From positions 41,648-105,647 of the IMG/VR virus record IMGVR_UViG_3300010396_000006: a DNA stretch of 64,000 nucleotides; one strand, 5' to 3'. This DNA comes from a virus. Below, one piece after another: positions 4,605 to 34,880 of this stretch. The notes below the pieces were generated by a model that was given only the letters and a program-made list of their open reading frames with translations, searched no databases and had not been told where the DNA came from. Position 1 is the stretch's first letter. Every line of letters begins with the position of its first letter. The position numbers were made by a program, and so were the translations under genes.

Positions 4605-5426
4605 GATAAGCTATCGTCTGCGGAGCGAAGGAAGCTCAGAAGGCAGTTAAAGGAACAAGGCGAATCAATACCCGCTGACCTAACGCCTAAGCCCAATCGT
4701 AAAGCCCATCTGGATAAACTCCCCAATACGGAAACAAAGACACCGAAGACGGAGAGTAAACCAAGGGGCCAAGCGAAGCCAAAGCCCAAAGCGAAAGCCA
4801 AGCCCAAGCCAAGAAAGACTGAGACAACACCGGCCGGTAATGAATCAGTCGATCAACAGAACGAGACGGAACAACCCAAGCCAGTCACGGTAGAAGCGGT
4901 CCCCGCTCCCGAGTCTGAAATCTCACCCGAATCTGTGTCGGGGGGATGGGGGGACGGTGGCAAATATGGTCCATCTGGTCTGACGAAAACGCACGAACAG
5001 CGGATGGTTGTCAGTTCATTCAATTGGCAAAACCGCAATCGATTCCCGCTGGAAAAGGCTGTTGACGAAAACCTGAAGATCGTTGATGCGGTTGATGGCA
5101 AGTCGGATGTCTATCAGGAAATCCTGACCACGACTGTCGAGATGATGAGATCGAAGTCGGCGAGGTCAAAGGGCATTGGATTGCGGGCCGGCGTTCAACT
5201 CGTGACGGCCGTGCAAAAAGACGACCATGCCAAGTTGAGGGCTGAACTGCGTCCGATGGTATTCACTCCTCCCTCCCCTGCGCCAGAGATGCCGGCTCCC
5301 GCAGTTCCGGCCCATGTCGACCAAAGCATGAACATCGATAACAGCCATCGCGTCGTGATCTTCAACATTCCGGATAACGGACGAGATCCACAATTGAAGG
5401 CGCAATTGACTGGGGCCGCTCAATGA
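4599..5426 (+). CDS. putative terminase small subunit
   Basis: Overlaps the terL start; ends with the 'VVIFNIPDNGRD' motif typical of TerS C-termini; Lys/Pro-rich N-terminus. Confidence 0.6.
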   Translation: MEDKLSSAERRKLRRQLKEQGESIPADLTPKPNRKAHLDKLPNTETKTPKTESKPRGQAKPKPKAKAKPKPRKTETTPAGNESVDQQNETEQPKPVTVEAVPAPESEISPESVSGGWGDGGKYGPSGLTKTHEQRMVVSSFNWQNRNRFPLEKAVDENLKIVDAVDGKSDVYQEILTTTVEMMRSKSARSKGIGLRAGVQLVTAVQKDDHAKLRAELRPMVFTPPSPAPEMPAPAVPAHVDQSMNIDNSHRVVIFNIPDNGRDPQLKAQLTGAAQ

Positions 5427-7150: not shown

Positions 7151-7210
7151 CAACGAAAATCTTTATGATTACCGTTGACGCCGTTCAGTTTCACCTCAAA
7201 GGGTTGCGGC

Positions 7211-7828
7211 ATGACAGGCGAAGAATACGACTTTGCTGATCGAGCGCTCAGTTTCATGGGCCGTTTGGATGCGTTACAAGCCGCTCAGTCGGAATGGTCT
7301 CAGCGAACATTCGGGTCAGATGAGAAGAGAGGTCCCCGCGGCCCGTTGCTTCATCTCGCCAAGGAGGCCGACGAAGCCGCTCAAGAGGAGGTCGGATCGG
7401 CCAAGCAACTGAAGGAATTCGGAGACGTATTCCTGTTGACCCTTGAGTCATTCCGGCGCGGAAAAAGAACGATCGATGAAGTTCTGGAAGCCGCAATTGC
7501 GAAGCATGCCGAAAACAGGCTTCGCGTATGGAATGTGATCGATGCGGAAGAACCAATCTTCCACAAGAAAGAACCGTCGTTTCGGATCAAGCCACTCGAA
7601 TGGCAGGATTCTCAGTTCGACGTCAATCTTAAAAGAGCCGAAACGATATTTGGATTCTATTGGGTGCAATACAATCCGATGTTTGAAACCGATTTCGCCT
7701 GGGGATTTCATTTCCACGATTTCACCGATGAAGAACAGCACTGTTGCATGTCGTTTGATCAGGGTAAGCAACTCGCCTGGGAGAACTGGCAGGAACGAAT
7801 CAAAAGCGCATTGATCGAGGCCGAGTGA
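7211..7828 (+). CDS. dATP/dGTP pyrophosphohydrolase-like (DUF550/MazG-like) protein
   Basis: 'EWSQRTFG...GPLLHLAKEADEA...EFGDVFLL...AKHAENRLRVW'. Confidence 0.75.
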   Translation: MTGEEYDFADRALSFMGRLDALQAAQSEWSQRTFGSDEKRGPRGPLLHLAKEADEAAQEEVGSAKQLKEFGDVFLLTLESFRRGKRTIDEVLEAAIAKHAENRLRVWNVIDAEEPIFHKKEPSFRIKPLEWQDSQFDVNLKRAETIFGFYWVQYNPMFETDFAWGFHFHDFTDEEQHCCMSFDQGKQLAWENWQERIKSALIEAE

Positions 7829-8183
7829 CGGCACTAATGCAGGAGACCGGAATGAGTAAGAAGCTGGACCGAGATCTATACACAGTGATCAAAATCATCA
7901 CGAATTTCTTGCCCGATGATGAATTGGGGCGGAAGATTGAAGGCGAATTGACTGATGTTCTTGAAAACACGAGATGGATTCCTCCAGAACTCCGATGGGA
8001 ATCGTGGGGAGAACTGATGTCCTGCCTAGATCGCAATCTGACAGGAAAATTTGAGACAGAACCTGTTTGGGTTAAAGCGATCCAGTCTGTCTGTAATGAC
8101 ACAAAGTTCATTTTGGAAAGCTAGACAAATGAAGCCGCTACTGAAATGGCTCATTCAGTTATTGGGTAGTTCCAAGTCATGGG

Positions 8184-8738
8184 ATGACGAATGGGATTCA
8201 TCGCTTGTTGACTGAACAATATCTTGAACTCAAAAGCCGTGTCGCGGCTGAATACAGTTCTGAAATCGAGTGGGCGGCAAATCTCAAGCTGTGCGCCGAC
8301 TCGCTTCGATTCGCCTATGAAACGATCTGGGTCATTCTGAACGCCGGGATGAAGATGCAGGTTGCTCGACAGATCGAATCAAAGATCCTGCCGACACTGG
8401 CCAAAGGCGAATCGGCATCAATGGTATTCGGTCACAAACTGAAATGCCGGGCAATTGATGATGTCTGGAAGAATCGAGTCAAACTGTTCAGCGAGTACCA
8501 ATCGGCAAATGACAAGCTGGAATACCTCGAAACACTGCCGCACATTGGGCCGATCACCAAATTCCATCTGGCTCGAAATCTTGGTTTAGACTTCTGCAAA
8601 CCAGACCGTCACTTAGTTCGTATTGCAGGAGATGAGACGGCGTCAGTAATGTGTCAGCGGCTGGCGGACGCGACTGGCGATCGAATTGGCGTTGTTGATT
8701 GTGTGATCTGGCGAGCCGCAAATCTGGGGTGGGTGTGA
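8184..8738 (+). CDS. HhH-GPD superfamily DNA glycosylase-like protein
   Basis: HhH 'LETLPHIGPITKFHLARNLG' followed by 'KPDRH'. Confidence 0.65.
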   Translation: MTNGIHRLLTEQYLELKSRVAAEYSSEIEWAANLKLCADSLRFAYETIWVILNAGMKMQVARQIESKILPTLAKGESASMVFGHKLKCRAIDDVWKNRVKLFSEYQSANDKLEYLETLPHIGPITKFHLARNLGLDFCKPDRHLVRIAGDETASVMCQRLADATGDRIGVVDCVIWRAANLGWV

Positions 8739-9530
8739 TATGACAATCTTCGCCGCGCTCATAATCGGTCAGATGATCCAATTCCAATCAGACCGAGGCT
8801 ACGCCGAATGCGTTGGAACAAAGGAACAAGTCGCCTCGTTCTACGTGACTTGGAAATTCTGCTGCGATCCAAATTGCCAAACGACCAACAAAGCTACCTG
8901 GGATAGATGGGATAAGCTGTGGGCCGATAATCTGTCAGAGACAATGCTGTTTCAGAATGACCGAGCGACACGGCTTGGAATCGCCAAGGCGGTCTTCTAT
9001 CGCGGCTTGTGGGTGAGGTTCAGAGTTCGTATTGACCCGTTCGGATCGTTTTGGGTCTACTATTCACCGTGGGTCCATGTCGCGGCCACAATTGGTTTCC
9101 TGTTGGGTGTGATCTGGTGGCTGAAGCGAAGGATGAATCGTCAATGCAAAAGTTCGCCTGCCTGAAATGCGGCAACGTGCAAGAGATCAACAGCGAGGAA
9201 GAACACTCGGTCCGTTGCATCAAATGCAATCACGAAACAAAAGACGTACGGTCAATGGTGCGGTTGGACAGTTCAAAAGAGTTTCTGAAAAACTGGAAAC
9301 CTGTCGAATATAAGGACTGATGATGCCCGTCAATGGACCGCCTCCCAGGGGACAATACTGCGGACCGAGGCCGCTATCGCTGATTCCATATCCCACGTCA
9401 CCGCCCGCGCCGCCAAAGCGGTATGTTCGAAGAGAACCGGAGCAACGCTGCGAACCTCCAGCCGAGAAGCCAGACAATAGCTGGATGATCCTCGCCGGTC
9501 TGTTCGGCCTGCCGTTCTTATTCGGCAGTT

Positions 9531-9764
9531 GTGAAAATTCCTCAAGCGACGAATGAGGCCAGCTTGAACGAACGGCAATACCCGCTGAATGTTCTCGCCA
9601 TCGCGAAAGACGGTGAACGGTTCTTGTTCTTGTACGATGACGACAGTGTCGAGGAACTGATTCGCGTTCTTGGCCAATACGCCGCTGATACTGAACTCAA
9701 CTTCTCATGGTATGACGCCGCCCTTCTGAGTAAGCGAATTAAAGATCGCCGACCCGCCGATTGA
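9531..9764 (+). CDS. small conserved protein of a type recalled from Planctomycetota
   Basis: 'NVLAIAKDGERFLFLYDD...LGQYAADTELNFSWYDAALLS'; true start may be downstream. Confidence 0.6.
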   Translation: MKIPQATNEASLNERQYPLNVLAIAKDGERFLFLYDDDSVEELIRVLGQYAADTELNFSWYDAALLSKRIKDRRPAD

Positions 9765-9818
9765 ATCTGTCAGTCCGCTATTGCAAAAATCAGTAAGATT
9801 TCACAAGATGCCAATTAA

Positions 9819-9913
9819 CCGATTGTTGGGCAATCGGACTTGATAGACGCGGCTTGTCTGTGTCGGCCTGTCGTAATACTGCCCAACGGTATTGCGACAG
9901 GCTTTTTCTTTTG
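9819..9913 (+). ncRNA. kissing-loop terminator/attenuator RNA 1
   Basis: 5' hairpin carries GTTGGGCA; terminator GCCTGTCGTAATAC/GTATTGCGACAGGC+TTTTT has loop TGCCCAAC; operator at 9787-9801. Confidence 0.6.
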
Positions 9914-9929
9914 ATCAAAGGGCAATCAG

Positions 9930-11678
9930 ATGACAGTCTATGGCAGTGTGTGCGTGAGTGTTCCAACCGGTCCATCGTCAACGAAAAGCTTCTCGTTTGG
10001 GGTCCCAGGCGAGATCGTGGATCGGATGTGTGCAAGACCGGATATTGAATGGGAACCCCAATTCAAGGCGATGGTCAACAAGGCAATCAACGGGCCACCG
10101 ATCGAATCAGACAATAAGGAAGAACTGAAACCGCCATTCGTTTCCGGCCAGAAAGTGATCTGCGTTCTGAACAGCAAAAATCTCGGCGGATTGACTGTCG
10201 GTGAGGAATATACGATCTGGAGATGCTTGAAGGACTCGATGATGTCGAGCGGCTTCAAATGCGAACTCAAGGAAAAGATGGTGGGCCAGATGTATTGTGC
10301 ATCGCTGTTCAAAGCGAAGTCGGAGTCTGGAAAACTGTCAAACGATGAACCACCATTCCAAGTCGGCGATCATGTTGAGATGCTCAAAGAGAGAGATCAA
10401 AAACCAACCGGGGTTGCCAGTCTCGTAGTTACGGGCGTTCGTTCACCGGAGCAGATGGCGGGGCATTGGACGCTTCCAGGCGTCAAGGCAAACGAAGGTG
10501 AGTGGTTTGTGTCGTGCGATCCAAAATGCACTGCATGGGGACCGGCAGGATATTTTCGCAAGGCGTTCTTACCGCCATTCGCAGTCGGTGAGGAAGTGTT
10601 GGCGAATTACAACTTTTGGTCTGACTTGAATACGCTGGCTTCTGCAATCCAGATCCACGAGAACAAGCCATATCGAATTAGAGCAATCCAAAAGGAAGTC
10701 GACTGCAATTCCGGTTGGAAAGTCTGGGTGGAAGGACAGCAAGGCGGTTGCGATGCGTCGAAGTTCAGGAAGATGGATTCAATCGGAGAACAAATACGAA
10801 AGTCGCTCGAAGGAACATATCGCAATGCCCAGGAACTTATTGATTTTGAAGTCGGCCATGAAGCGGCAATTGCGAGAACGAACTATTTCGCATATCACGG
10901 ACCGTTCGAAAGCGGCGATTTGCGATGGGGCCAAGTCAATATTGGCGAAAGACGTCGATGGTTGAACGCCGCGAAAGCTGTCGAAGCAATCGTGAAAGAT
11001 TGTGACGAATTTCGTATCGCCAATTCGATCGAAGAACTGATCCAGCAGAACAGCGGACCGGAAGATCTGAACCTCGAAGCTGGCGTGAACAAACTGGAAC
11101 TGGCGTTGCAGTGGGTGAAAGATCGGATTGTCCACGAAAAGGCGAAGATCGCACCGCAACCGTTCCAAGTCGGAGAAGTAGTTCAGGCTGTTGAAAACGT
11201 GATGAGCGGAAACGGAAAAGGAACTGTCGCCGCTGGTTGTCATATCAAAGTATCGGCCTGCGAACGACGCAACCCTGATATCTGTCCTTCAGGCTGGATC
11301 GTGTATGCCGAAGATTGTGACCACTGGGGCGGATTCGATTCAGCGAAGTTCAAGAAAGATCCGATTGTTAATCCGGTCTCGACAGATCAATGGAAATTGC
11401 CCAATTCAGGGACTGTCAAATTCAGTCCCATCATTAATCCAAAACCAGGACAGATCCCCATCTACAGGGGTGATGGTCAAGTTGAATGGATTGATCTTCC
11501 GAAAGATCAAACAAGATCGATAGCGTGGGAATACAGAGTAACTCCATGTCTGGATGTCATTGATGAAGGATTTGATTCTGGCGTTGTCGACAGATTGAAT
11601 AACAGCGGTGAAATCGGCTGGGAATTTGTAGCGTTCACTCCTATGACAGGACGAGCCGTATTCAAGCGCAGGAAGTGA
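9930..11678 (+). CDS. multi-repeat protein (four SH3/KOW-like 'PFxxGxxV...FxK' modules, C-terminal DUF4177-like)
   Basis: Repeats visible in the translation; C-terminal 'WEYRV...LNNSGEIGWEFV'. Confidence 0.6.
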   Translation: MTVYGSVCVSVPTGPSSTKSFSFGVPGEIVDRMCARPDIEWEPQFKAMVNKAINGPPIESDNKEELKPPFVSGQKVICVLNSKNLGGLTVGEEYTIWRCLKDSMMSSGFKCELKEKMVGQMYCASLFKAKSESGKLSNDEPPFQVGDHVEMLKERDQKPTGVASLVVTGVRSPEQMAGHWTLPGVKANEGEWFVSCDPKCTAWGPAGYFRKAFLPPFAVGEEVLANYNFWSDLNTLASAIQIHENKPYRIRAIQKEVDCNSGWKVWVEGQQGGCDASKFRKMDSIGEQIRKSLEGTYRNAQELIDFEVGHEAAIARTNYFAYHGPFESGDLRWGQVNIGERRRWLNAAKAVEAIVKDCDEFRIANSIEELIQQNSGPEDLNLEAGVNKLELALQWVKDRIVHEKAKIAPQPFQVGEVVQAVENVMSGNGKGTVAAGCHIKVSACERRNPDICPSGWIVYAEDCDHWGGFDSAKFKKDPIVNPVSTDQWKLPNSGTVKFSPIINPKPGQIPIYRGDGQVEWIDLPKDQTRSIAWEYRVTPCLDVIDEGFDSGVVDRLNNSGEIGWEFVAFTPMTGRAVFKRRK

Positions 11679-12192
11679 CGCCATGATCGATGTCACCGCA
11701 ATCCAATGTCCAGAGTGCGATCATCTCCCATTGAAGATCATCCATCAGTCGGAAGAACAGATCGTCGCCAAATGTCGCAATTGCGGGAATGACTGGATCA
11801 TCACGGTCAAGACGGTCGTTTTATCGGAGTCGGAAATTGAGGCCGGACAAGATGATGCTGTTGAAATCACAGACATGCCGTTCTGAGAGGGAGAGTGAAT
11901 CATCTGCGACGAAATGAGTTCCGAAGAACGCTACGCCATGCATGAGGATATGGCGGATAAAATCACCGATGCATGCGCCGAATTGTTCCCCGAAGATGGA
12001 ATGTGTGCTGATGTTTTATTCGCGTTGCTGACGGCTGCGTCATGGGGAGCGTTATTTCTCATTGATATGCCGCCGGATCAAAAACAAAGGTTCGTTAATA
12101 ACGGCGTCGTGCCGGAACTCGTTGCCACCGCTTCATGTGCGATACGAGAACGATTAGAAAAGATGCGTGTTGCTGACAATAGCCGAAACTAA

Positions 12193-12927
12193 ATGAGGAG
12201 TGAATTAATGGGAACGCAAGTTTGGAATGTGGCATCGCTGCTCGTCATGACGTCTATGTTCATTGGCTTGGCGACAATGCTCTATCGAGCATTCCGTCAT
12301 CAACCGGACGTGAAGACTCCAGAAGATCCATACGGATTCGGTTGCAAGCCAACGCCGATTCAATTGAGAGTCCTGAAATCAACGGCTGACATCGTGATCT
12401 ATTGCGGGCCTGCTGGATCTGGAAAGAGCATGCTGATGCGAATGGCCGCAATGATGCGAGCCAGGTTGTATCCGTCACAGCCTATCCTCACGTTCTGGTT
12501 TCAGCAGCGAGAAACGTGGGAAATGTTGGACAAGCACATTCCGTCAATTCGCGTGATCGGCCTCAAAGGCATCAATGAGGCTTGTGATCAATTTGCGGGA
12601 GTTGCGGCCCACACGATTTGCATCGACGGGATTGACTGGATCAGGGAAGAGTCGTTCTGGTTTCTGCTGTCGCGGTTGCGATCGAACGATTCGAACGTCA
12701 ATCCGCAAATGTTCTGCTCAATGGATCGTCTTACAGATCCAAAGCCGCTATGGCTCGCAAAGCTGGTGAAGCATTGGGAGGAACCAGCAGACGGAATCGG
12801 CATTCGTGGAAAGCGGAATGGAATCCGTCACTTCCAAAGGATTGACGGCAATTTGCATCTTGTGGATATCACAAAGCATGATGCGTTGCTCAGCAAGCCG
12901 ATCTCGATCGAATACATCCAAGGATGA
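12193..12927 (+). CDS. degenerate terminase-ATPase paralog with N-terminal TM helix
   Basis: Colinear similarity to the TerL ATPase half; Walker A GPAGSGKS kept, Walker B DE changed to DG, no nuclease domain. Confidence 0.75.
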   Translation: MRSELMGTQVWNVASLLVMTSMFIGLATMLYRAFRHQPDVKTPEDPYGFGCKPTPIQLRVLKSTADIVIYCGPAGSGKSMLMRMAAMMRARLYPSQPILTFWFQQRETWEMLDKHIPSIRVIGLKGINEACDQFAGVAAHTICIDGIDWIREESFWFLLSRLRSNDSNVNPQMFCSMDRLTDPKPLWLAKLVKHWEEPADGIGIRGKRNGIRHFQRIDGNLHLVDITKHDALLSKPISIEYIQG

Positions 12928-13412
12928 CTAATCAGGGCACGATGCCATCATCAAACCAATAACAGGAGAATCACAAGATGGGATTAGCGAGACGATGGAT
13001 GCGCAAAGTCGAACACAAATTTGCCGATCAATTTCAGGAAGGGGAATTCTTCGACAAACGACAGAAACACGCCAAGCCGCAAGTATTCAACACTCGGATC
13101 TACTTCCAAGATCCAGAATCGGAATGCGTTCAAGTGTCTCGGATCATGGGAACCACGTCTGTTGCTCATCGCCTCAAAGGCCACATGGACCGCAACCCGA
13201 CATGTCGAATCTTGCAGGTGAAGAACACGCCTCATAAACGATGGACAAAGCCAGAACATCCTCTGGTCGCTCGCCGCAAGATGGCAAAGGCCAGAGCTGA
13301 AAGGCTCAAGCGTCAAATCCCGGTCAAGAGATAATCGTTACCGGTCCGTGAATGGGTAATTGTGCCGCCAAGTTTTAAATACTCCTACGAATGTTCAAGA
13401 AAGGCTGATTTG

Positions 13413-13889
13413 ATGCCGGAGAATTTGACGATCGAGCAGAAGGCCACTAACAACGACACATTCCGCCACATTGAACGGGTGAGAAATCTGATCAATACTT
13501 GCGTGACGGATCTACTTCGACGGGGAGAAAGACACGATCAAACGAAACTGGAATCACCAGAGGTTGAACTGTTCACAGAATTCACGCCAAAGTTGGCTGA
13601 GTGTACTTACGGAAGCGCCGAGTACGAGGGATTCCGGAAAGCAATGGGGCCGGCGCTCGCTCACCACTATGCGAACAATTCGCACCATCCAGAGCATTGG
13701 AAGAATGGCATTGACGACATGAGCCTGCTGGACATTGTCGAAATGTTGTGTGACTGGAAAGCAGCGAGTGAACGCCATAACGATGGAAACATCCGGAAGT
13801 CGATCACGATCAATGCCGACCGATTCAAGATGTCGCCGCAGTTGGTGAAGATTCTGGAAAACACAGCCGACTTGCTGTTCTCAGATTGA
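13413..13889 (+). CDS. DUF5662-like HD-type protein
   Basis: 'HIERV...HDQTK...HHYANNSHHPEH...EMLCDWKAA'. Confidence 0.75.
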   Translation: MPENLTIEQKATNNDTFRHIERVRNLINTCVTDLLRRGERHDQTKLESPEVELFTEFTPKLAECTYGSAEYEGFRKAMGPALAHHYANNSHHPEHWKNGIDDMSLLDIVEMLCDWKAASERHNDGNIRKSITINADRFKMSPQLVKILENTADLLFSD

Positions 13890-13947
13890 GACCGCTGGCA
13901 ATGTGCTGACGGCAAACAGACCGTAACTCAAGTTTCAGGAGAAATCA

Positions 13948-14241
13948 GTGAATTCAAGACCATTGGCCGATCAGGTGATCATCAAGCGAGATGACGCCGA
14001 AAAAGTGACTCAGGGAGGAATCCACCTGCCGGATCGAGCGCAGAACGTCCCGCGAAAAGGAACTGTCCTCGCCGCAGGACCTGGGCGACTTCTGGACAAC
14101 GGAACCCGCGGAGAAATGGAACTGAAAGCCGGGGATCGAGTCTATTTCTCAGCTTACGGCGTTCAGGAAGTGGAGATTGACGACGAAAAAGTCATCATCT
14201 GCCGGGAGGCGGATGTGTTAGCGGTGATCGAATCTGAGTGA
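13948..14241 (+). CDS. groES: co-chaperonin GroES
   Basis: 'RPLADQVII...TQGGIHLPD...GTVLAAGPG...LKAGDRVYFSAY...EADVLAVIE'. Confidence 0.93.
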   Translation: MNSRPLADQVIIKRDDAEKVTQGGIHLPDRAQNVPRKGTVLAAGPGRLLDNGTRGEMELKAGDRVYFSAYGVQEVEIDDEKVIICREADVLAVIESE

Positions 14242-14278
14242 TCTGCCGTCGCAAAGCCCTGTCTGATATCGATTTCCA

Positions 14279-14320
14279 AGGCTGAGTTGACTATTTTGTT
14301 GACTCAGCCTCTTTCGTTTT
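14279..14320 (+). terminator. intrinsic terminator after groES
   Basis: AGGCTGAGT / ACTCAGCCT stem with T-rich tail. Confidence 0.55.
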
Positions 14321-14329
14321 CAGGCAAGG

Positions 14330-17300
14330 ATGTCACAAATCATGAGCCGACGCCGCAACCGCAACCGTCGCGTTGAGAACTATCGCAAGAATTCGGATCG
14401 GGTTGTTGAGCATCCAAATGTTCCGGCCCCCGAACTGAACGACTCCCAAATCAAGTCGATGGCGTCTCAGATGCGGGCGGCTCTGGCCGGAAGCTTCGGC
14501 GGCGCTCAAGTCACGAATCACCGCGAAGAAGCTCTCCACTATGAGGGCAATAGCTACGTCAATATCGCGGCCATCTGCGCCCAAATGATGATGGTGACGA
14601 TAACAGCCTATGTCGACGGATCGAACCAGCTTCGACAGCAGTCGGTCCGGAAGTCGCTGCGAGGTCTCGTCGGAAGCCGATGGAAGTCTCAATATGGGGT
14701 TGATGAGGCATCGTCGAAGCAACTCGAATCAGACCATTACCTGATGCGATTGCTGTCGAAGCCAAATCCGCACGAACCGGGCAGCATGTTCCGGTATCGG
14801 CAAACTCTTCAACTCAGGCTCACTGGAGGTGCGTTCCTGTGGAACGTCCCAAATATCAACGGCCGGACGTGCGAACGGTACGTCATCCCCACCACATGCC
14901 TGACGCCGGTCTATCCAGACAACACGTTGCCGTACGGTGGTTATCGCGTTCAACCAAACTGTATGCGATGGATTCCACTGGTTGACGATGGATTCGTGAT
15001 CGGGACCCCGGCCCTGATGCGAGTGTTGGGCATGATCATTGATGCCCGAGAAATCCAAAAGGTTGGCTATCCACATCCGATCTGGCTGGATGACTTCCAA
15101 AGCCCGATGTCTGCTGGCGCTCAGTGGGTCGATGCCGAACGATCGATCAACATCGCACGGGCAATGGGCATCAGCCGCGGCATGAATCCGAGCGGTTTCC
15201 TTGAACTATCCAAAGAATACATGGGCATCGAACAAGATGCGCTGAACATCACTCAGCGGAAACTCGATCGACAATATGGCGGCGTCAACAACACGGGCAA
15301 GGTCATTGCCGTGGCTCCCGATACCAAGTTCACCGGATACGATCGAAGCCCGAAAGACATGGAATACCATGAAGGGTACTTGGATCACCGGGAAGCGAAT
15401 CAGTCTCTACACGGCGTTCATCCGATCATCACTGGCGGACAGCCCCCCGGCGCATACGCGGCCTACTACGCCGCCATGCGAGCATTCGACAACAACACGT
15501 TGACTCCCATTTGTGACATGCTGGCGGAATCAGACACGTTCCACATTGCACCGCAATTCGGCGAAGGGATCACGATCGAGATCGAGCCAAAGCCGATCAA
15601 CGATGAGGACGAACTGAATTCACGTCTCCAGGTCGATGGTCAATTGGGGATCATCAAGGTCAATGAAGCGCGAGCATTGCGAGGAATGCCGCCATTGGAC
15701 GGAGCGCAAGGAGAAAAGCTGTGCGGACCGACTTCAAAGGATAAGGTTGGTCAGGATCAAGACAGCGACAATCCATCCAAGCCGAAGAAACCAAAGCAGT
15801 CTGGCGATGCGCCGTCAACTCCCGAGGTCCAAGAAGCCGAACAAGCGGACGTCCCCAAGGCTCCCGAAAATCCCATCGTCGGCAAGAGTGAATCAAAATC
15901 ACTTCAAGCCGCAATGGAAGGGATGAAGGAGGCGGACGAAGACTACATTCAAGAAATAGTTGCCAAGGCGTTGGATTCGCGACTGAAGGCGATGCAACCT
16001 GCCGAGAAGCCAAAGCGGAAGTATTCCTCGACGCAGTTTGATCTGCCTGCCGGTCTCGCCGAAAAAGTGCAGGAGATGGCAGCCCTGATCAATCCGGCCG
16101 ATCTCGCATCGGATGGAATCGAAGAAAATCCGCACGTGACTTGCTTGTACGGGCTGACCGAAGAATCACCCAATGATGTCAAGAAAGCCGTCAAGGGAAT
16201 CTCGGCCGGTCCGATCGTTCTTGAATCGCTGTCGTTGTTCCCGGCTGGTGACAAGCTTGCTCAGCATGGCGGCGAACAGTTCGACGTTTTGAAGATCAGC
16301 ATCGGCGGAAAGTTCATTCACGAGATTCACAATGCGATCGCAGAATCGTGCGAGTATGAAACCGATTATGCCGACTATTCTCCTCACTGTACGATCGCCT
16401 ACTTGAAGCCGGGAAAAGGCCGCAAGTATGTGACGATGAACAATCCAGTGGATGGGATGACGTTCATTCCTGACAAGCTGATCTTCAGTAGCAAAAACCG
16501 AACGGTCTCGGCAATTCGATTGAGCGTTCTGAAATCAGTCGAAGAACAACCATCAGAAGCTCAGATTACTGCCGGCAATTACAAAAAAGATCACATCACA
16601 ATTCAGGGGCTAAGGATCTCAATCGAAAATCCGAAAGGATCTGTTCGAAGTGGTCGTGACGATGATGGCAATGAGTGGTCAACGAAAATGCGGAATGATT
16701 ACGGCTACATCAAAGGAACGAAATCAGATTCCGATGGTGATCACATTGATGTCTTCGTTGGGCCAAATCCAAGTTCAGAATTGGTGTTCGTAATTGATCA
16801 GGTCAATCCGCAAAGCGGGCAACATGACGAACACAAATGCATGTTGGGATTCGATTCGAAAGATCAAGCGAAGTCTGCCTATCTCGAAAACTATTCCAAG
16901 GGTTGGAAAGGCTTCGGCGGCATTACTCCAATGCACATGGATCAATTCAAGGAATGGCTAGACAGCGGAGATTCATCAAAAGGAATCGCGAGAAAATCTC
17001 TCACGGCAGCATTCTCCGAATCAGAAATGAAGGGCCACAATCCAATCAGCGACATCCAAGCCATTGGAAAGAGACTCGCTGAATCCGATTGTGGAATGCC
17101 CGGATACGGTCAGATCTTTATCAAGGAAAACGGATCTGGCCAAGCATGGTATGTCGGTGGCGACGGAGATGAACGAGGATTCGATAAGACTGTCATTCAA
17201 GAACTGAAGAAAGTCACGGGGATTGACGAAGTTCGTTATGAGTCTGAATCGTTCCCGCCCGATGGGGAAGGATGGATTCAGGTCTATCCGAAAGTGTCGA

Positions 17301-20300
17301 AGCGTAAATCTCTCGGCATGTCCGAAGGGATCGGGTCAGATGGAGGATTCGCCGTCGCTTCCGAAGACGAACGATGCCCAAAATGTCCCAAATGCGGATC
17401 ACGGGAAACGCATCATGCTAGAACTGATGGCACAGGGAACGCGATCTGTAGCAATTGCAAATCAATTTTCACTGATCCTGATTATGGAAAACAGAAATCA
17501 GTTTCGTTTCCATCGTCAGAAGTCGTACCGGGCAACAACGGCCATCAATTCCCCAAGAACACATTGATTCTTGGTGGGGATCAAGTTCTGATGCCACCAG
17601 AGTCAGAACTCAAATCCAAATGGATCACGATTCATCCTGGGGGAGACAAAGACGCAACTGGCATTCACATCCTGATTGACGAAGACGGCGAAATCAAAGG
17701 CGGTCCGGCCGAACTGCGAGACAAAGGCATCCGCAAGATGTCTGACTTCGGGAAAGAAGACCTGAAGCCAGTCAAACCAAAAGACAATCACGAGAAGGCC
17801 GCATTCAACGCCAGCAAGCGAGCCGATCAAGCATCCGCCGATGCTAAAGAGTCGGGCGACCTGTTCGACCATATTGCGGCTAAAGAAGCCCACATGCACG
17901 CCGCAGCCCATCACAGCAAAGGCGGCAATGAAGATCAGGCGTCATATCACAGAAAGGCGGCTCAACAGCACGGTTCAGCCGCGACACCAACGGCTCCAGC
18001 GTCAAACGGACAACTGAGCGACGAAAAGATCATCCAGGCAATGAAGCCATCCGTTGATCGCAGCGGCATGGTTGAGGCCGAAGAACTGCGATCGATGCCA
18101 GAATTCGCTGGGATGTCGAAAGAGAAATTCGACCAACGAATGATGGACATGGCCAAAGTTGATCAGCCGGGCGGACCGAAGGTCTCGTTGCACCGATACG
18201 ACCGAGCCGAATCGCTGTCAGCGGACGATAAAAAAAAGATGATCTTCGATCCGGATGCGCCGGCACGATTCGAAGATGGACAAAAGGGAGCGTATTACAA
18301 TGCGGTCTCCATCCGCAAATCGTTGTCAGAAATGAAATCGCATTGGATTACGATCCATCCTCATGGCGATGAGCATGATGGAACGCACGTTTTGATCGAT
18401 GGAGAAGGGAATATCGAAGGCGGTCCCGAAGGACTGGCGAAACGTGGGATTCACAAGCTGTCCGACTTTGGGAAAGGCGGCGAATCAGCAGACAAACCAC
18501 ACGAAACCCGTGAAGAGTGGGCGAAGAGACATTCCGATGCCGCCGATCATTGGTTACATGGAGTGAACAATGATCTGGCAGCCGTGCATCAAGAACACGG
18601 CGACTTGATCACAAAAAAGCACATGACGGACAGCTTTCGAAATCACGTCAATACCGGAAGAATGACCCCAGATCAATATGAGGATCATGTTTCTAAGGGA
18701 ACCATTCTCGGTGGACACGATTACGAACGCGCTCAGCATGTCGAGCAGAAAATCCATGAGATCAAAAATCGTCCGCTAACTGTCCCGGAGCCAGATGGAA
18801 AGCATCCATACGTTGAACCGCCCGCCAAGCCGCCGGAAGAAAAGCCAGAAATCCGACCAGACATCGACGCTCCGATCAGCAAGAAAGACACGCCTCGCGA
18901 AACGGCGGCAAAGCAAAAGAAGATTGACGATGATTATGCGTTTGCTCGCAATTCATCCATCCCGAATGTCGGCGAAGATGTTGCCGATTCGGCTCGTCAC
19001 AAGCGAAATGCTTGGCGTGGATTGGAAGATGCGGAATCCAATGGAACCGCCGAATCAATGGTGACTCGTGATAATCTGCTCAAGGCCGAACCGCACAACT
19101 TGATGTCTCATGCCGGAAAACATCCACTGACATCACTGGCCATGCATTACGCGATGAGATCGTTCCCAGCGAAACCATCCAGCAATCGCGAAGTGGCCAA
19201 TGCCAGCGATCGGAAGGACTATCACGAAGCGTATCAGAGCATCAAAGCAAAAGCCGAGCATCTGGCGGAAACAGAATCCGATCCACGGGCAGCCGCAGAG
19301 AAGCTACGAGAACACGTCGGCAATCATCTGAAGGGATTGAGGGAGCGGAAGATTCCCGGACCCACAATTCCCGTGGCCGATCGATACAACAAGACCGCGA
19401 ACAATTTGGTTGGAATGCACAAGGCGTTACGATTCGCCAGCTACGGCCGACCATCGGCAAATAGCGTTCATGGCAAGATGGAAGAGTTCTCAAAGGCGAT
19501 GGCCGGGAAATATGGACTTCCAGAAAAGTATGAACCTGAAGCGGCCAAGCAATTCGCCTCCCATATTGAGACTCACGCCAAGGACATTATTGACGGGAAA
19601 TCGCTTCCACAGTCATTTGGCATTAAGGGAGAAAAGAAAAACGAATTTAATCCTGCCGATCGATACGTCAAGCATGCTGAACGAGCCGGGGGCAAGGATG
19701 TCAGTCACCAAACCGCAACGGGAGTCTCGGCGGCAAACTCCGTCGTAAACGACTTCGGGATGCGTGGCGTCCAATGGGGTAACAGCGTCACTGACGACGA
19801 ACGCCATCATCACGCTGCCAAGGTTGTCGAAGCGTTGACCGATCTGGCCGATACTCTCGGCATCAAGCCGGCTGATCTCAGTCTCGGCGGAAAGCTGGCC
19901 TTGGCCATTGGCGCTCGCGGTAAGGGAACTGCCTCGGCTCATTACGAACCGCATACCCAGGCCATCAACCTGACGCGGGCCAGCGGAGTCGGTACTCTCG
20001 CCCATGAGTGGGGACACGCCTTTGATCATTCACTGGAGAATTTCGCGAATCGTGCGACGAGTGCGGTCTATCACAGCGAAAACTATCGATCCAGTCCGGC
20101 AATGCAAAAGCTGACATCCGATTTCCGATCATCGGGATTCACGAATCGAATTCATAGTGAGGTTCGTGATATGGTGCGTCAGGGCCTGATGTCGAAAAAG
20201 AAAGCGGAATACTGGCTATCAACCAGAGAACAATTCGCCCGTTGCTTCGAGAGTTATGTTCAACACAAGCTGGCTGACACGAATCAGAAGAATACGTATC

Positions 20301-21037
20301 TTGCTGGTCTGATTTCGGACGGCGGCTTGTGGCCGACCAAGGAAGAAACGGCCAAGATGGCCCCCGCTTTTGACAGTCTGTTCGCTGAATTCCGCAAACA
20401 AAAGTATGGAAGCGAAAATCGGATTGATCAGTCTCGATCGGAAATCAAATCGGCAGTCTTGGATTTGGTTGGTCAATCCGTCTTTAAATCGTCGCGATGG
20501 ATCACAATCCATCCGCACGGTGAAGACGCGAAAGGCGTCCATATCCAGATCAATGACGACGGCGAGATCCTGTCAGGTCCCGCACATCTTCGCGACAAGG
20601 GAATTACCCACATGGGGGATTTCGCGAAGCGGGGAAGCAATCAAGCGGCCGTGGACGAACTGAAGCCTCACGCTCTCGAATTCCTGACCGAGCAACACAA
20701 GCTGAGAGAACATCACAAAGCCGAAGCTCGCAAACTGACTGGCAAGAATGCCGGCAATCTGGCGATGTCGGAAAACAGCTATCACGATCATTCGGATGCT
20801 CATCGATTCGAGACCGCCGCTCGCACATTCGCCCGAGAGAATCCCGATGCTGGATTGAATCCAGATGCTCACGACACGCCGGCCAAAGTCTGGGAGCTAA
20901 TCCGGGAGGGCAAGAAGAAAGCCCCGCTGATCAATTCGAAGGAAGTCCACGAGACAGCCAGAGCCTGGGTGAAGAATCACCGAACGAAGCGTGCGCCGGT
21001 AGGCACATACGAACACGATTCCGATTGGAACTTCTGA
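14330..21037 (+). CDS. portal protein fused to multiple effector domains (polyvalent protein)
   Basis: HK97-type portal N-terminus ('LLSKPNP...LRLTGGAF', 'GKVIAV', 'VNEARALRGMPP'); 2H domain (PHVT...PHCT); 'AGNYKKDH...IENPKGS...DYGYIKGT...DGDHIDVFVG' pyrophosphatase-like domain; Zn ribbon; three WITIHP repeats; 'GVQWGN...LAHEWGHAFD...EQFARCFE' LPD/metallopeptidase-type domain. Confidence 0.88.
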   Translation: MSQIMSRRRNRNRRVENYRKNSDRVVEHPNVPAPELNDSQIKSMASQMRAALAGSFGGAQVTNHREEALHYEGNSYVNIAAICAQMMMVTITAYVDGSNQLRQQSVRKSLRGLVGSRWKSQYGVDEASSKQLESDHYLMRLLSKPNPHEPGSMFRYRQTLQLRLTGGAFLWNVPNINGRTCERYVIPTTCLTPVYPDNTLPYGGYRVQPNCMRWIPLVDDGFVIGTPALMRVLGMIIDAREIQKVGYPHPIWLDDFQSPMSAGAQWVDAERSINIARAMGISRGMNPSGFLELSKEYMGIEQDALNITQRKLDRQYGGVNNTGKVIAVAPDTKFTGYDRSPKDMEYHEGYLDHREANQSLHGVHPIITGGQPPGAYAAYYAAMRAFDNNTLTPICDMLAESDTFHIAPQFGEGITIEIEPKPINDEDELNSRLQVDGQLGIIKVNEARALRGMPPLDGAQGEKLCGPTSKDKVGQDQDSDNPSKPKKPKQSGDAPSTPEVQEAEQADVPKAPENPIVGKSESKSLQAAMEGMKEADEDYIQEIVAKALDSRLKAMQPAEKPKRKYSSTQFDLPAGLAEKVQEMAALINPADLASDGIEENPHVTCLYGLTEESPNDVKKAVKGISAGPIVLESLSLFPAGDKLAQHGGEQFDVLKISIGGKFIHEIHNAIAESCEYETDYADYSPHCTIAYLKPGKGRKYVTMNNPVDGMTFIPDKLIFSSKNRTVSAIRLSVLKSVEEQPSEAQITAGNYKKDHITIQGLRISIENPKGSVRSGRDDDGNEWSTKMRNDYGYIKGTKSDSDGDHIDVFVGPNPSSELVFVIDQVNPQSGQHDEHKCMLGFDSKDQAKSAYLENYSKGWKGFGGITPMHMDQFKEWLDSGDSSKGIARKSLTAAFSESEMKGHNPISDIQAIGKRLAESDCGMPGYGQIFIKENGSGQAWYVGGDGDERGFDKTVIQELKKVTGIDEVRYESESFPPDGEGWIQVYPKVSKRKSLGMSEGIGSDGGFAVASEDERCPKCPKCGSRETHHARTDGTGNAICSNCKSIFTDPDYGKQKSVSFPSSEVVPGNNGHQFPKNTLILGGDQVLMPPESELKSKWITIHPGGDKDATGIHILIDEDGEIKGGPAELRDKGIRKMSDFGKEDLKPVKPKDNHEKAAFNASKRADQASADAKESGDLFDHIAAKEAHMHAAAHHSKGGNEDQASYHRKAAQQHGSAATPTAPASNGQLSDEKIIQAMKPSVDRSGMVEAEELRSMPEFAGMSKEKFDQRMMDMAKVDQPGGPKVSLHRYDRAESLSADDKKKMIFDPDAPARFEDGQKGAYYNAVSIRKSLSEMKSHWITIHPHGDEHDGTHVLIDGEGNIEGGPEGLAKRGIHKLSDFGKGGESADKPHETREEWAKRHSDAADHWLHGVNNDLAAVHQEHGDLITKKHMTDSFRNHVNTGRMTPDQYEDHVSKGTILGGHDYERAQHVEQKIHEIKNRPLTVPEPDGKHPYVEPPAKPPEEKPEIRPDIDAPISKKDTPRETAAKQKKIDDDYAFARNSSIPNVGEDVADSARHKRNAWRGLEDAESNGTAESMVTRDNLLKAEPHNLMSHAGKHPLTSLAMHYAMRSFPAKPSSNREVANASDRKDYHEAYQSIKAKAEHLAETESDPRAAAEKLREHVGNHLKGLRERKIPGPTIPVADRYNKTANNLVGMHKALRFASYGRPSANSVHGKMEEFSKAMAGKYGLPEKYEPEAAKQFASHIETHAKDIIDGKSLPQSFGIKGEKKNEFNPADRYVKHAERAGGKDVSHQTATGVSAANSVVNDFGMRGVQWGNSVTDDERHHHAAKVVEALTDLADTLGIKPADLSLGGKLALAIGARGKGTASAHYEPHTQAINLTRASGVGTLAHEWGHAFDHSLENFANRATSAVYHSENYRSSPAMQKLTSDFRSSGFTNRIHSEVRDMVRQGLMSKKKAEYWLSTREQFARCFESYVQHKLADTNQKNTYLAGLISDGGLWPTKEETAKMAPAFDSLFAEFRKQKYGSENRIDQSRSEIKSAVLDLVGQSVFKSSRWITIHPHGEDAKGVHIQINDDGEILSGPAHLRDKGITHMGDFAKRGSNQAAVDELKPHALEFLTEQHKLREHHKAEARKLTGKNAGNLAMSENSYHDHSDAHRFETAARTFARENPDAGLNPDAHDTPAKVWELIREGKKKAPLINSKEVHETARAWVKNHRTKRAPVGTYEHDSDWNF

Positions 21038-21144
21038 TTCATCAATAGCCAGACAGTTGCGGAATCTCTAAGATTTCTGCGATTGATCTGGTCCCGTTGA
21101 TGGAGCATGAAGATGATTCAACGCATGCAAGAAAGGTTTTCAAA

Positions 21145-21831
21145 ATGGAGATGAATCGACGCTCACTACTCGGAATGATCCTTGGTTCGGCTTGCTCGTT
21201 ATTATTGCCAACTAAGTCGATATCCGCTGGTTTGAAGTCACTGGAAATTCCGGTCGATGCGAACGGCATCCCAATTCACTGTTATGTCTGGAACGTGCCA
21301 AACATCAACGGCCGGACGTGCCAGAGACATATTATTCCTGTCGACGATCTTGCATTGATTAAAGCGAATACGGAGTTGCCTTATAGTGGGTATCGTATCA
21401 GCCAATCCCCCAATCGATGGGCATCCATGCCGCTTTATGGGGAAAGCCCGGTTGAAAATCCATCATTGCGAGTCGCTGGATATATCATTGATGACAGGCA
21501 AGTAGAACGAATCTCTCCATCGAATCCATTTCGGCTGAAGTTGCTTTACCATCATGACGTCGAGGTATGCTTTATTGACGGGTCTGCCGATGACTCGATC
21601 GCCTTCTATCTCGCATGGCAAAGATGCCGCCAAACTCCATCGCAAGAATCGGAGTTGCGAAAACATTTAGCGAATGGCGACGGCATTGCGATTGGCTTTC
21701 GCAAATCAAATTTGATGTCTTTTGTGGCAATCAACCAAGCGGTTATGGACTGCGGTGTCCCATGCTTTGAGACAGACAAAATGACAGAAAGCGAAAATCG
21801 ATGCACGCGGACGTATGCTCACGTCAGCTAG
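21145..21831 (+). CDS. protein with twin-arginine-like leader and an ~80-aa portal-derived segment
   Basis: 'MNRRSLLGMILG'; 'WNVPNINGRTCQRHIIP...LPYSGYRI...RVAGYIIDDRQVERI' matches the portal segment at ~14840-15063. Confidence 0.7.
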   Translation: MEMNRRSLLGMILGSACSLLLPTKSISAGLKSLEIPVDANGIPIHCYVWNVPNINGRTCQRHIIPVDDLALIKANTELPYSGYRISQSPNRWASMPLYGESPVENPSLRVAGYIIDDRQVERISPSNPFRLKLLYHHDVEVCFIDGSADDSIAFYLAWQRCRQTPSQESELRKHLANGDGIAIGFRKSNLMSFVAINQAVMDCGVPCFETDKMTESENRCTRTYAHVS

Positions 21832-21840
21832 GGAATCGCA

Positions 21841-21926
21841 AAATCTTACTGATTTCAGTTGACATCCTTGCCGATATCTGGATAGCATTCTGAACATGTG
21901 AGCGGGTTGAACCAGTAACTCCCCGC
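21841..21926 (+). promoter_or_regulatory. promoter module 2
   Basis: AAATC-TTACT-GATTT, TTGACA-18-TAGCAT, imperfect hairpin with CCAGTAAC loop. Confidence 0.7.
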
Positions 21927-21963
21927 GAAATTCTCTTGTTCCTGCTATCAGAAGGTGCGACGT

Positions 21964-22347
21964 ATGGCAACGAAAAATGGTCCCGAGAATATGTCTGAGT
22001 ACATCCGAGGATTGTTGAAAAGCGATCCAAGTCGAACGATGTCGAATGTGGTCGAGTGTCTGGCCGAAGACTATCCAGGCTACAAGGCCAACAAAGGAAG
22101 CCTGTCGGTCGGCTTTTACACGATGCGAAAGAAGCTCGGTATCACGTCAGGGCGCAAGGCTCGCGGCAAGTCACAACGGAAGCCGATCAAGGTTCATCGA
22201 CCAGTATCCATTCGTGGAGGGACGATAACCGGAGTCCGTCTTTCAATCGATCATCTGGCGTCTGCCGCAAAGTTCGTCGGTGAAGTCGGCGGGTTCAAAG
22301 CCGCGATTGAATCCGTCAAGCAAGTCCAGACGGTTCAGGTTCGCTGA
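21964..22347 (+). CDS. basic putative DNA-binding protein (planctomycete-type)
   Basis: 'MSEYIRGLL...' N-terminus, Lys/Arg-rich linker, C-terminal 'LASAAKFVGEVGG'. Confidence 0.55.
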   Translation: MATKNGPENMSEYIRGLLKSDPSRTMSNVVECLAEDYPGYKANKGSLSVGFYTMRKKLGITSGRKARGKSQRKPIKVHRPVSIRGGTITGVRLSIDHLASAAKFVGEVGGFKAAIESVKQVQTVQVR

Positions 22348-23803: not shown

Positions 23804-24478
23804 ATGTACGAACGATTCACGGATCGGGCCGCGAAAATAATGCAATTGGCCAATCAAGAAGCCCAGCGATTCAATCATGAATACATCGGGACCGAACATA
23901 TTCTGTTGGGACTCGTGAAAGAGGGTTCAGGTGTTGCGTCAAACGTCTTGAGAAATCTGGACATCGACTTACGCAAGATCCGCTTGGAAGTTGAAAAGAT
24001 GGTCGGAAGCGGTCCCGATATGATCACAATGGGAAAGCTGCCTCGGACGCCAGGGGCGAAGCGGGTTGTTGAACTGGCGATCGAGTCCGCGAATGCACTC
24101 GGGACAAATTACGTCGGGACCGAACATCTGTTGCTTGGTCTGATCGGCGAGAGTGAAGGCATTGCGTTCCAAGTGTTGCAGAAACTTGGTGCTACAAATG
24201 ACAAGGTGATTGCCGAGTGGGAATCGCTGATGGGCCAGACAGCGCCCGGCAGATCAACAAAGCCAGTTCGGGAACCACTGGCGTTTGTTTTCGCGAATTA
24301 TCCCCAAGCGTACGTTCCGATATTCGATACGCCGCGGAGCATGCCTCCGGTCATGGAGGAAGTGATCACGATTCTCGGCGTGTCCATGTGGAACGGTCGG
24401 GAATGGGTCTCGCGCTTCGGTGCCAAATGCGACCAGAAGTTGATCAAATGGTGGATACCGTTGTTCAATGTGGTTTGA
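23804..24478 (+). CDS. stand-alone ClpC N-terminal (Clp repeat) domain protein
   Basis: 'MYERFTDRA...EAQRFNHEYIGTEHILLGL' and second repeat 'YVGTEHLLLGL'; no AAA+ domain follows. Confidence 0.85.
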   Translation: MYERFTDRAAKIMQLANQEAQRFNHEYIGTEHILLGLVKEGSGVASNVLRNLDIDLRKIRLEVEKMVGSGPDMITMGKLPRTPGAKRVVELAIESANALGTNYVGTEHLLLGLIGESEGIAFQVLQKLGATNDKVIAEWESLMGQTAPGRSTKPVREPLAFVFANYPQAYVPIFDTPRSMPPVMEEVITILGVSMWNGREWVSRFGAKCDQKLIKWWIPLFNVV

Positions 24479-33683: not shown

Positions 33684-34880
33684 CGGAATCGCCTCTTAAA
33701 AACAACGGAGATCTGAATCATGATCACGACTCAAGCCGAGCCAAAATTCTGCGTTGGTGACGAAGTGAAGCTTCCTAACGGTCAAGTCTGTCCAGTCGCC
33801 GAAATCGAATTTGATTCGGTTCTCGGATTCCGATACTGCGTGGTTCTGTTCGGGACCGATGACGAACCGGACGAACGAGATTGGTACGGCGAAAAGCGTT
33901 TGAAGCTCGCTTGATTCGATTAATCTCACTCACAAAGGTCAATGAATGCTCCCCGAAGAAATGGAATTCCACCGCAACTATCCGTTCATGCTGGTCGACA
34001 GGATGTGTCCAGGCGTGATCGTCGATCGATGCCGGTCATTCTCAGAAGCGACTGGACTGGTGAAGTCAATGGGCGCTCATGTGGTCAGTCTCAACGGATG
34101 CGTCGTGACGTTTGAAAATGTCGCCGCTGTTCGGAGTTCGTTCATCTCGAAGCCACACAAGGATCAATCATGCCGCGGATCTCACTCGTCAAATATCGTG
34201 AACTGATTGAAGACTGTTGGGCGAAAAGGCGTGAGCTGACGAATGCCGTCTCGTCTCATGATCAGCGGGTCGCATGGATGTGGTGTCGAGATGCGACCGA
34301 TGCCCTGAAGTCAGCCAGAACGGCGTTTCCCGCGGAACGAGATTCACGCCGGGCCGCGTTTGTGATCTCGACCAATGAGATTCTACTGGCTCGCAAGAAA
34401 GCGGAATTCGACGCCGTAGATGTGCTGATTACAAAACTGGCATTTGGAAAAGGTCCGTGAAATGGCTGTACTGATTCAGAAATGGCAAGCGGCGGACGGC
34501 TCCGAGTGGAACACTCTCCAAGCGGCGGAAGGCCGGGAACGATTGTTGAGTGAAATCAACATCGCCATGTCGATACTGAGGATTGTCAAAGTCGAACGCG
34601 GCAAGTTCTATCAGCATGATCTGCCGCTCGTGAGATTGGCTCGCCGGCGTCTGGTGGAAATCATCAAGCGTGAACGATTGCAGCATTGGCCAGAGCATCA
34701 AGCAAGAGACGCCGATGAGTTCCATCCCAACGGAGGACTCGGGCGAATTCTTGATGATCCAGGAGATCCTCTTGCGTCAGCGTGGGGACGATTCGGCAGC
34801 ATTGACTTCGAAACAGGCCGTCAATACGACCAGCCGTACACTGCAATGCACCCCGAAGAAATGGCAAAGGCTGAACCGCA

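Follow-up and report, generated by a model that had tools for sequence, protein, structure and literature searches.

Sequence comparisons indicate that the open reading frame (ORF) lying just past the portal gene of this phage is a real, lineage-specific chimeric gene rather than noise, because it carries a frame-specific codon signal and because frames of 228 residues are rare on the non-coding strand. The encoded protein is, with good probability, a chimera in which a wing sub-domain of the portal has been inserted shortly after the leader of an exported protein resembling p183, an orphan encoded in the same genome. Unless stated otherwise, positions refer to the window, i.e. the whole 64-kb stretch of DNA that was analysed. 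The ORF and the portal gene are located as follows:

21145..21831, + strand: chimeric orphan gene, 228 amino acids plus stop, with alternative upstream starts at 21097 (TTG) and 21100 (ATG)
14330..21037, + strand: portal fused to a polyvalent protein, 2235 amino acids; Pfam Phage_portal (residues 129–452), InPase, LPD1 and 2_5_RNA_ligase2; PHROG portal families

The phage genome and its portal

The window comprises the last 64 kb of an IMG/VR virus record of 105,647 bp, and the direct terminal repeats of this record indicate that the phage genome is probably complete; all of its long genes are carried on the + strand. The product of 14330–21037 is the only portal of the phage. Its Phage_portal domain scores 80 bits in Pfam over residues 129–452, the AlphaFold model of the whole portal domain resembles HK97-family portals by structure comparison (E ~1e-12), and downstream of this domain the fusion carries 2′,5′-RNA-ligase-like, inorganic pyrophosphatase, zinc-ribbon and LPD1 modules (Pfam). 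The true large terminase, TerL, is encoded at 5423–7150 and possesses both Terminase_6N and Terminase_6C. Relatives of the TerL–portal module are present in Schlesneria (Planctomycetota) assemblies, mostly as contigs of metagenome-assembled genomes, and the Schlesneria sp. T3-172 chromosome holds two of them; Schlesneria is the presumed host clade, and the virus is presumed to be an uncultured planctomycete phage.

TerL lies immediately ahead of the portal in all related loci, and ~7 kb of other genes separate the two in this phage. This interval (7150–14330) holds a dATP/dGTP pyrophosphohydrolase-like gene, an orphan of 582 residues, a TerL fragment, a DUF5662 gene and a GroES homologue. The GroES (Cpn10) homologue, at 13948–14241, and a protein with two Clp_N domains, at 23804–24478, are chaperone- or protease-adaptor-like candidates for host takeover. 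No tyrosine or serine recombinase family was matched anywhere in the genome, and yet Schlesneria chromosomes do contain relatives of the TerL–portal module; the phage may be virulent, or may integrate via another system. Elsewhere, at L025:1677–2654, a 191-residue protein that has a single membrane helix, at its N-terminus, precedes a 113-residue protein with a classical lipobox (FMAVGC). Both lie in a group of genes for exported proteins ahead of a fibre-like protein of 1731 residues and, judged by eye, look like an inner/outer spanin pair.

A portal fragment within the downstream ORF

The ORF starts 108 nt past the portal stop codon and in a different frame. By BLASTP, ORF residues 46–131 align with portal residues 168–253 at a level far above chance (37/88 identities, 42%; 63% positives; E 1e-18), which bears out the original prediction of a portal fragment right after the portal gene. 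The three motif pairs quoted there are all found as written in the ORF and the portal, and the leader described ahead of the portal piece (MNRRSLLGMILG...) is present at the ORF N-terminus. An hhalign comparison with a 12-portal profile gives E 6e-18 and reveals homology that ends sharply at ORF residues 45–133, equivalent to portal residues 167–255, with nothing portal-like on either side. The corresponding stretches of aligned DNA are:

21277..21543, + strand: portal-derived module, a copy of a beta-rich wing sub-domain, ORF residues 45–133 (BLASTP, hhalign and structure model)
14828..15094, + strand: source segment in the portal gene, residues 167–255, with six strands and two short helices in the portal model

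A 33-nt core of the match occurs at just these two sites in the 105,647-bp genome, where 0 are expected. Pfam returned no match to the ORF even at E 10, the Phage_portal gathering score was not reached, and no family was found for the ORF or its C-terminal part in Pfam, PHROGs, NCBIfam or PADLOC. At the RNA level, a search of 20800–22100 against Rfam gave just one sub-threshold chance match. Two other origins of the ORF were considered and rejected: a frameshift or readthrough fusion to the portal, since the frame of the ORF opens only past the portal stop codon, and a decayed second portal gene, since the flanks are not portal-like and match p183 instead.

The flanking regions resemble an exported orphan

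The protein p183 is an orphan of 183 residues encoded at L025:6726–7277 (33725–34276 of the genome), 7.9 kb before the window start. It opens with a textbook RR-type leader (INRRGIL...KIASA, then S) and possesses six cysteines and a CxxxC motif. No other ORF N-terminus of the genome matches the leader of the ORF as well as the p183 leader does (score 41, next 29); the two read INRRGILGVIIAALFAPLVKIASA, followed by S, in p183 and MNRRSLLGMILGSACSLLLPTKSISA, followed by G, in the ORF. BLASTP of the ORF against p183 gives colinear high-scoring pairs, one over the leader (E 0.012) and one between ORF residues 130–159 and p183 residues 36–68 (E 0.002), the latter containing D.IAFY.AW. The second of these falls at the start of a further region of the ORF:

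21532..21828, + strand: C-terminal Cys-rich region, ORF residues 130–228, related to mature p183 (BLASTP and Smith–Waterman)

This C-terminal region scores 47 against mature p183 by Smith–Waterman, compared with 25.9 ± 4.4 for shuffles. When the portal-like residues 45–129 are removed, the ORF aligns end to end with p183 (66 versus 27.7 ± 4.6), a score that 0/2000 shuffles reach (z ~8). What the two proteins have in common is thus colinear, namely a leader with NRR, a Gly-rich core and K-x-x-S-A, then D.IAFY.AW, and a CxxxC motif at the aligned position in both. They differ in that a stretch of ~100 ORF residues, which takes in the portal module, corresponds to 7 residues in p183, and in their low identity; the similarity is weak, at 36% identity in short high-scoring pairs and with shuffling statistics between two orphans. 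Searches with p183 yielded no relative among 5.8 billion proteins, and neither Pfam, PHROGs, NCBIfam nor PADLOC assigned it to a family. From these alignments, p183 is likely the parent of both the leader and the C-terminal region of the ORF. The earlier description of a portal fragment fused to a leader is therefore correct as to its two parts, both of which are there, and needs revision as to the architecture, which the p183 alignments indicate to be an insertion into a copy of an exported orphan.

The leader and predicted export

The putative signal for export occupies the first residues of the ORF:

21145..21225, + strand: predicted export leader, residues 1–27 (regular expression and hydropathy)

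By rule-based assessment, the leader fits a minimal Tat pattern, defined as Z-R-R-x-hydrophobic-hydrophobic, a moderately hydrophobic core, a basic c-region residue and a small-x-small cleavage site; the respective elements are NRRSLL, a 15-residue Gly/Ser-rich hydrophobic core, and PTKSISA (P-x-K-S-I-S-A) before G. A lipobox pattern is also matched by SLLGMILGSAC, ending at Cys17, under a PROSITE-type rule of no charge over 6 residues, then [LIVMFWSTAG]2-[LIVMFYSTAGCQ]-[AGS]-C, with the Cys at 15–35. Because the hydrophobic run extends past Cys17, cleavage by signal peptidase I at ISA/G would be as good a reading as lipoprotein processing. The portal-derived segment begins ~17 residues after the predicted signal-peptide cleavage site, and the ORF contains 8 cysteines in its 228 residues.

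Tat-signal profiles (Pfam PF10518 and the NCBIfam model, which we take to be TIGR01409) gave no match to the ORF leader, even with the E limit at 10; genuine signal peptides frequently escape such short profiles. Neighbours of the ORF in the ESM Atlas include Tat-signal families at 0.82–0.86, which serves as a lead only. TatC is encoded by Schlesneria sp. T3-172 (E 1.7e-60), whose genome also carries relatives of the TerL–portal module. Hydrophobic N-terminal segments occur in 18/156 ORFs of the phage genome (12%), including the ORF at 21145–21831, the TerL fragment and p183. Taken from the leader sequence, export of the ORF product appears likely.

The copied segment maps to the portal wing

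In the AlphaFold model of the portal, residues 167–255 are modelled at pLDDT 81–88 and contain strands at 167–174, 180–186, 191–194, 204–207, 236–238 and 242–246, the segment being bounded by a helix at 151–165 and a low-confidence loop at 251–253. The ORF model displays the same strand order over residues 46–125 (pLDDT 76–88), with residues 127–228 below pLDDT 50; it rests on an alignment consisting of portals and is not independent of the portal fold. Its best structural match is to residues 112–188 of the HK97 portal (8fql_A), which is weak (Z 4.3, rmsd 4.5 Å, 74 aligned), followed by the RcGTA portal and then by generic small barrels at Z 2–3. The boundaries in the portal model, together with the mapping to HK97 112–188, indicate that the copied piece is a discrete, exposed outer wing sub-domain, as modelled, and neither a buried fragment nor part of the stem or clip. 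As modelled, the piece is thus not a buried region of the kind that had been named in advance as a reason to abandon the original prediction.

The ORF shares with HK97-family portals (PF04860; HK97 gp3, 8fql/8cez; RcGTA, 6te8/6tba) this homologous wing sub-domain of ~85 residues, at 42% identity to the phage's own portal and 29–38% to others of the family, and its module retains the beta sub-domain with the family signature WNVP..G..C.R..P...LP..G.R. It differs from these portals in its export leader and unrelated C-terminal domain, and in what is missing: stem helices, clip and crown are not present, with homology confined to portal residues 167–255 by hhalign and the rest aligning to p183. 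Lacking the N-terminal region, stem, clip, tunnel loop and crown, the ORF product cannot assemble into a portal ring and does not qualify as a portal.

The HK97 mapping bears on one possible role in head assembly. In HK97 Prohead I, a scaffold coiled coil is seated in a groove between neighbouring wings, whose lining combines K156, K160, K161 and K346 from one subunit with D94, D135, D141 and D169 from the other (PMC10275583). The matched range 112–188 takes in six of the eight (D135, D141, K156, K160, K161 and D169). The ORF product could therefore be imagined as a head-assembly modulator, cytoplasmic or at the membrane face, whose wing module would compete for scaffold, capsid delta domain or portal neighbours, and would tune the assembly of its own phage or poison that of co-infecting relatives. 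Such a role would be consistent with a module that maps to the HK97 wing stretch holding most of the scaffold-groove residues (PMC10275583), with the family-conserved residues that it keeps, and with its predicted co-transcription with the portal. However, by predicted topology the module lies outside the cytoplasm, a single module cannot reproduce the HK97 groove, which takes two adjacent subunits, and the structural match is weak (Z 4.3); we consider this role improbable.

Origin and age of the copied segment

A tree built from the segment places the ORF in the clade of the phage's own portal and the portals P0003, P0004, P0006 and P0010 (support 0.975), with a very long branch leading to it (1.3 substitutions per site). 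Among related portals, the residues NINGRTC and their codons are common to the ORF and the phage's own portal only. This clade placement and these exclusive residues and codons point to an origin of the segment within the phage's own lineage. The shared residues form part of a short patch of high identity:

21289..21321, + strand: 33-nt patch encoding WNVPNINGRTC, 31/33 identical in DNA to portal positions 14840–14872

Within the patch, 8/10 degenerate codons are identical, compared with 4 expected (P 0.009), whereas outside it 8/24 codons are identical at conserved residues, compared with 7.9 expected. Synonymous sites outside the patch are thus saturated, which indicates that the copying event is old. 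The patch may be a later, short gene-conversion tract. Constraint on the patch at the nucleotide level was also considered, and was rejected because related portals vary freely at its synonymous sites.

Coding signal, distribution and constraint

The codon-usage log-ratio of the ORF is 0.051 in frame versus –0.27 in the other frames, and its C-terminal 97 codons reach 0.074, the 95th percentile of off-frame windows being –0.099. On the non-coding strand, 3/3521 stop-to-stop frames reach 228 residues. None of the 44 genes used for training scores as low as the in-frame 0.051 (minimum 0.063, mean 0.159), and this poor codon adaptation also fits a young or decaying gene. No terminator-like site was found on the + strand from the portal stop to the end of the ORF, and a promoter-like site follows just downstream:

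21859..21888, + strand: promoter-like site, TTGACA-18-TAGCAT, 10/12 matches

Given the terminator-free gap and this downstream site, the terminase–portal transcription unit is predicted to end with the ORF. Directly after the promoter-like site lies a short hairpin (21900–21925) with CAGTAAC in its loop.

The ORF appears confined to a single genome. Its sole match in a word-indexed search of 5.8 billion proteins was itself, and phmmer against 1.84 billion representative proteins returned the ORF itself and portals of at least 469 residues, matched via the same 85 residues, with no short relative; P0011, also among the phmmer results, was dismissed as a spurious repeat protein. No match was obtained by tblastn of the ORF against 50,697 phage records, or in scans of IMG/VR and metagenomes with the single ORF protein. 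Each of 20 related loci (10 viral contigs and 10 Schlesneria or Dongia genome loci) has one copy of the portal segment, within the portal gene, and none has a second. A fragment both unique and unconstrained would have spoken against the original prediction; the ORF is indeed unique to this genome, but it preferentially keeps the portal-conserved positions, with 14/22 conserved columns retained compared with 19/64 variable ones (Fisher p 0.005), where a conserved column is one conserved in at least 11/12 portals.

These observations divide over the main rival explanation, a non-functional relic, in which illegitimate recombination or a template switch would have put ~270 nt of the portal into a duplicated p183-like gene as a short-lived accident. 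Confinement to one genome, codon adaptation that is the poorest among long genes, a very long branch (1.3 substitutions per site) and the lack of a family in Pfam, PHROGs, NCBIfam and PADLOC are what such a by-product might be expected to show. The event is old, as judged from saturated synonymous sites, yet the 228-codon frame, the canonical leader and the portal-conserved residues survive, and the boundaries of the insert coincide, in the models, with a structural sub-domain and not with a random stretch. We regard a relic as unlikely, although it deserves more weight than any other alternative considered here.

A second partial duplication, of TerL

An additional gene, within the interval between TerL and the portal, is also a partial copy of a packaging gene:

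12193..12927, + strand: TerL ATPase-domain fragment with an N-terminal hydrophobic helix (BLASTP to TerL, PHROG terminase)

The fragment is 28% identical to TerL (5423–7150) over 205 residues (E 5e-14); Walker A is kept, the DE of Walker B is changed to DG, and the nuclease domain is lacking. All-against-all BLASTP of + strand ORFs of at least 50 residues identified two inter-gene paralogue pairs only in the 105-kb genome, TerL with its fragment and the portal with the ORF, so that the partial duplication of both TerL and the portal, as originally proposed, does stand out as involving the sole such pairs. That both copies are envelope-targeted, as further proposed, is a rule-based prediction only. 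Both N-termini are hydrophobic, but by the positive-inside rule the ATPase-like domain of the TerL fragment would face the cytoplasm and the portal module would face outward, and on this prediction the two would not be targeted alike. Co-occurrence in related genomes, which the original prediction had put forward as a check, is negative: a second copy of neither the portal segment nor TerL is present in the 20 loci, where a query with the TerL fragment matches only the relatives' true TerL, at the looser of two E limits and not at the stricter one.

If the TerL fragment and the portal-derived gene nonetheless were a selected pair, they would be envelope- or membrane-directed copies of parts of TerL and the portal, the two packaging proteins most frequently sensed by bacteria. 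Together they might serve as an anti-defence sink, or might exclude related phages. In one scenario for a sink, a Tat substrate, already folded in the cytoplasm, would capture a wing-binding host factor and take this factor along during export as a "hitch-hiker". We hold such a pairing to be quite improbable.

Another reading would have the ORF product and the membrane-anchored TerL fragment soak up or misdirect Avs-type STAND sensors of portal and terminase. The attraction of such a decoy is that the only two paralogue pairs of the genome involve exactly TerL and the portal, that both fragments have hydrophobic N-termini, as do only 18/156 ORFs, and that both are predicted to be transcribed in one unit with their source proteins. 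However, Avs-type sensors act in the cytoplasm, and the ORF is predicted to be exported. From work on Avs1–4, target binding reportedly activates Avs proteins as a rule, rather than blocking them. Neither fragment has a counterpart in related genomes, and the ORF has no PADLOC match. The portal is a known trigger of defence (PMC13581612, PMC12847820), and in its derivation from the portal the ORF does resemble what portal-sensing systems (Avs4, Avs11 and SpbK) recognize. The docking site of SpbK is the portal clip (PMC12847820), and the contacts of EcAvs4 include the portal stem and clip as well (PMC12847820). In contrast, the ORF holds part of the wing only, is without the clip to which SpbK docks and without the stem and clip contacts described for EcAvs4, and is predicted to leave the cytoplasm. 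By these contacts, the copied segment does not reproduce the whole Avs4-contacted surface, and the paired decoy inferred in the original prediction is disfavoured by predicted export, by the wing-only piece and by the negative co-occurrence; we judge it highly improbable.

A model for the chimera and its implications

We slightly favour, as the best account overall, domain shuffling in which a duplicated gene for an exported, Cys-rich phage protein received a portal wing sub-domain and came to encode an envelope-directed accessory protein. A segment of ~85 residues would have been copied from the portal gene of the phage's own lineage into a p183-like gene, after the leader, and would then have evolved very fast while retaining the positions conserved across the portal family. 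The ORF would be transcribed late, at the end of the terminase–portal unit, and its protein would cross the inner membrane via its twin-arginine-type, possibly lipoprotein, leader. Once across, it may act as an accessory protein of the envelope, with the borrowed beta module as its new binding surface.

Some accessory proteins that phages export or make as lipoproteins block receptors or entry, such as T5 Llp, T1/phi80 Cor (also mentioned in PMC13673623) and T4 Imm/Sp. The ORF is similar to this type in its small size, its export- or lipoprotein-type leader and its location beside structural genes, in a phage apparently without an integrase. It is different in having no sequence or fold similarity to these proteins, such that the likeness is one of gene type only. 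By this analogy, receptor masking or superinfection exclusion would be the likeliest job of the ORF product, although this is a guess that we consider doubtful.

The analysis also carries a caution, in that a partial copy of a defence trigger is not necessarily a decoy; the destination of the protein and the surface that was copied both matter. The coincidence of two pairs, with TerL and portal fragments that both begin with a hydrophobic segment, merits experimental study in a planctomycete system that is tractable. If the ORF is functional, it would represent a new exported protein that arose when a structural sub-domain was lifted from an essential virion protein and set into a secreted scaffold unrelated to it, and domain shuffling would have been caught within a single genome in which both parent genes are still present.
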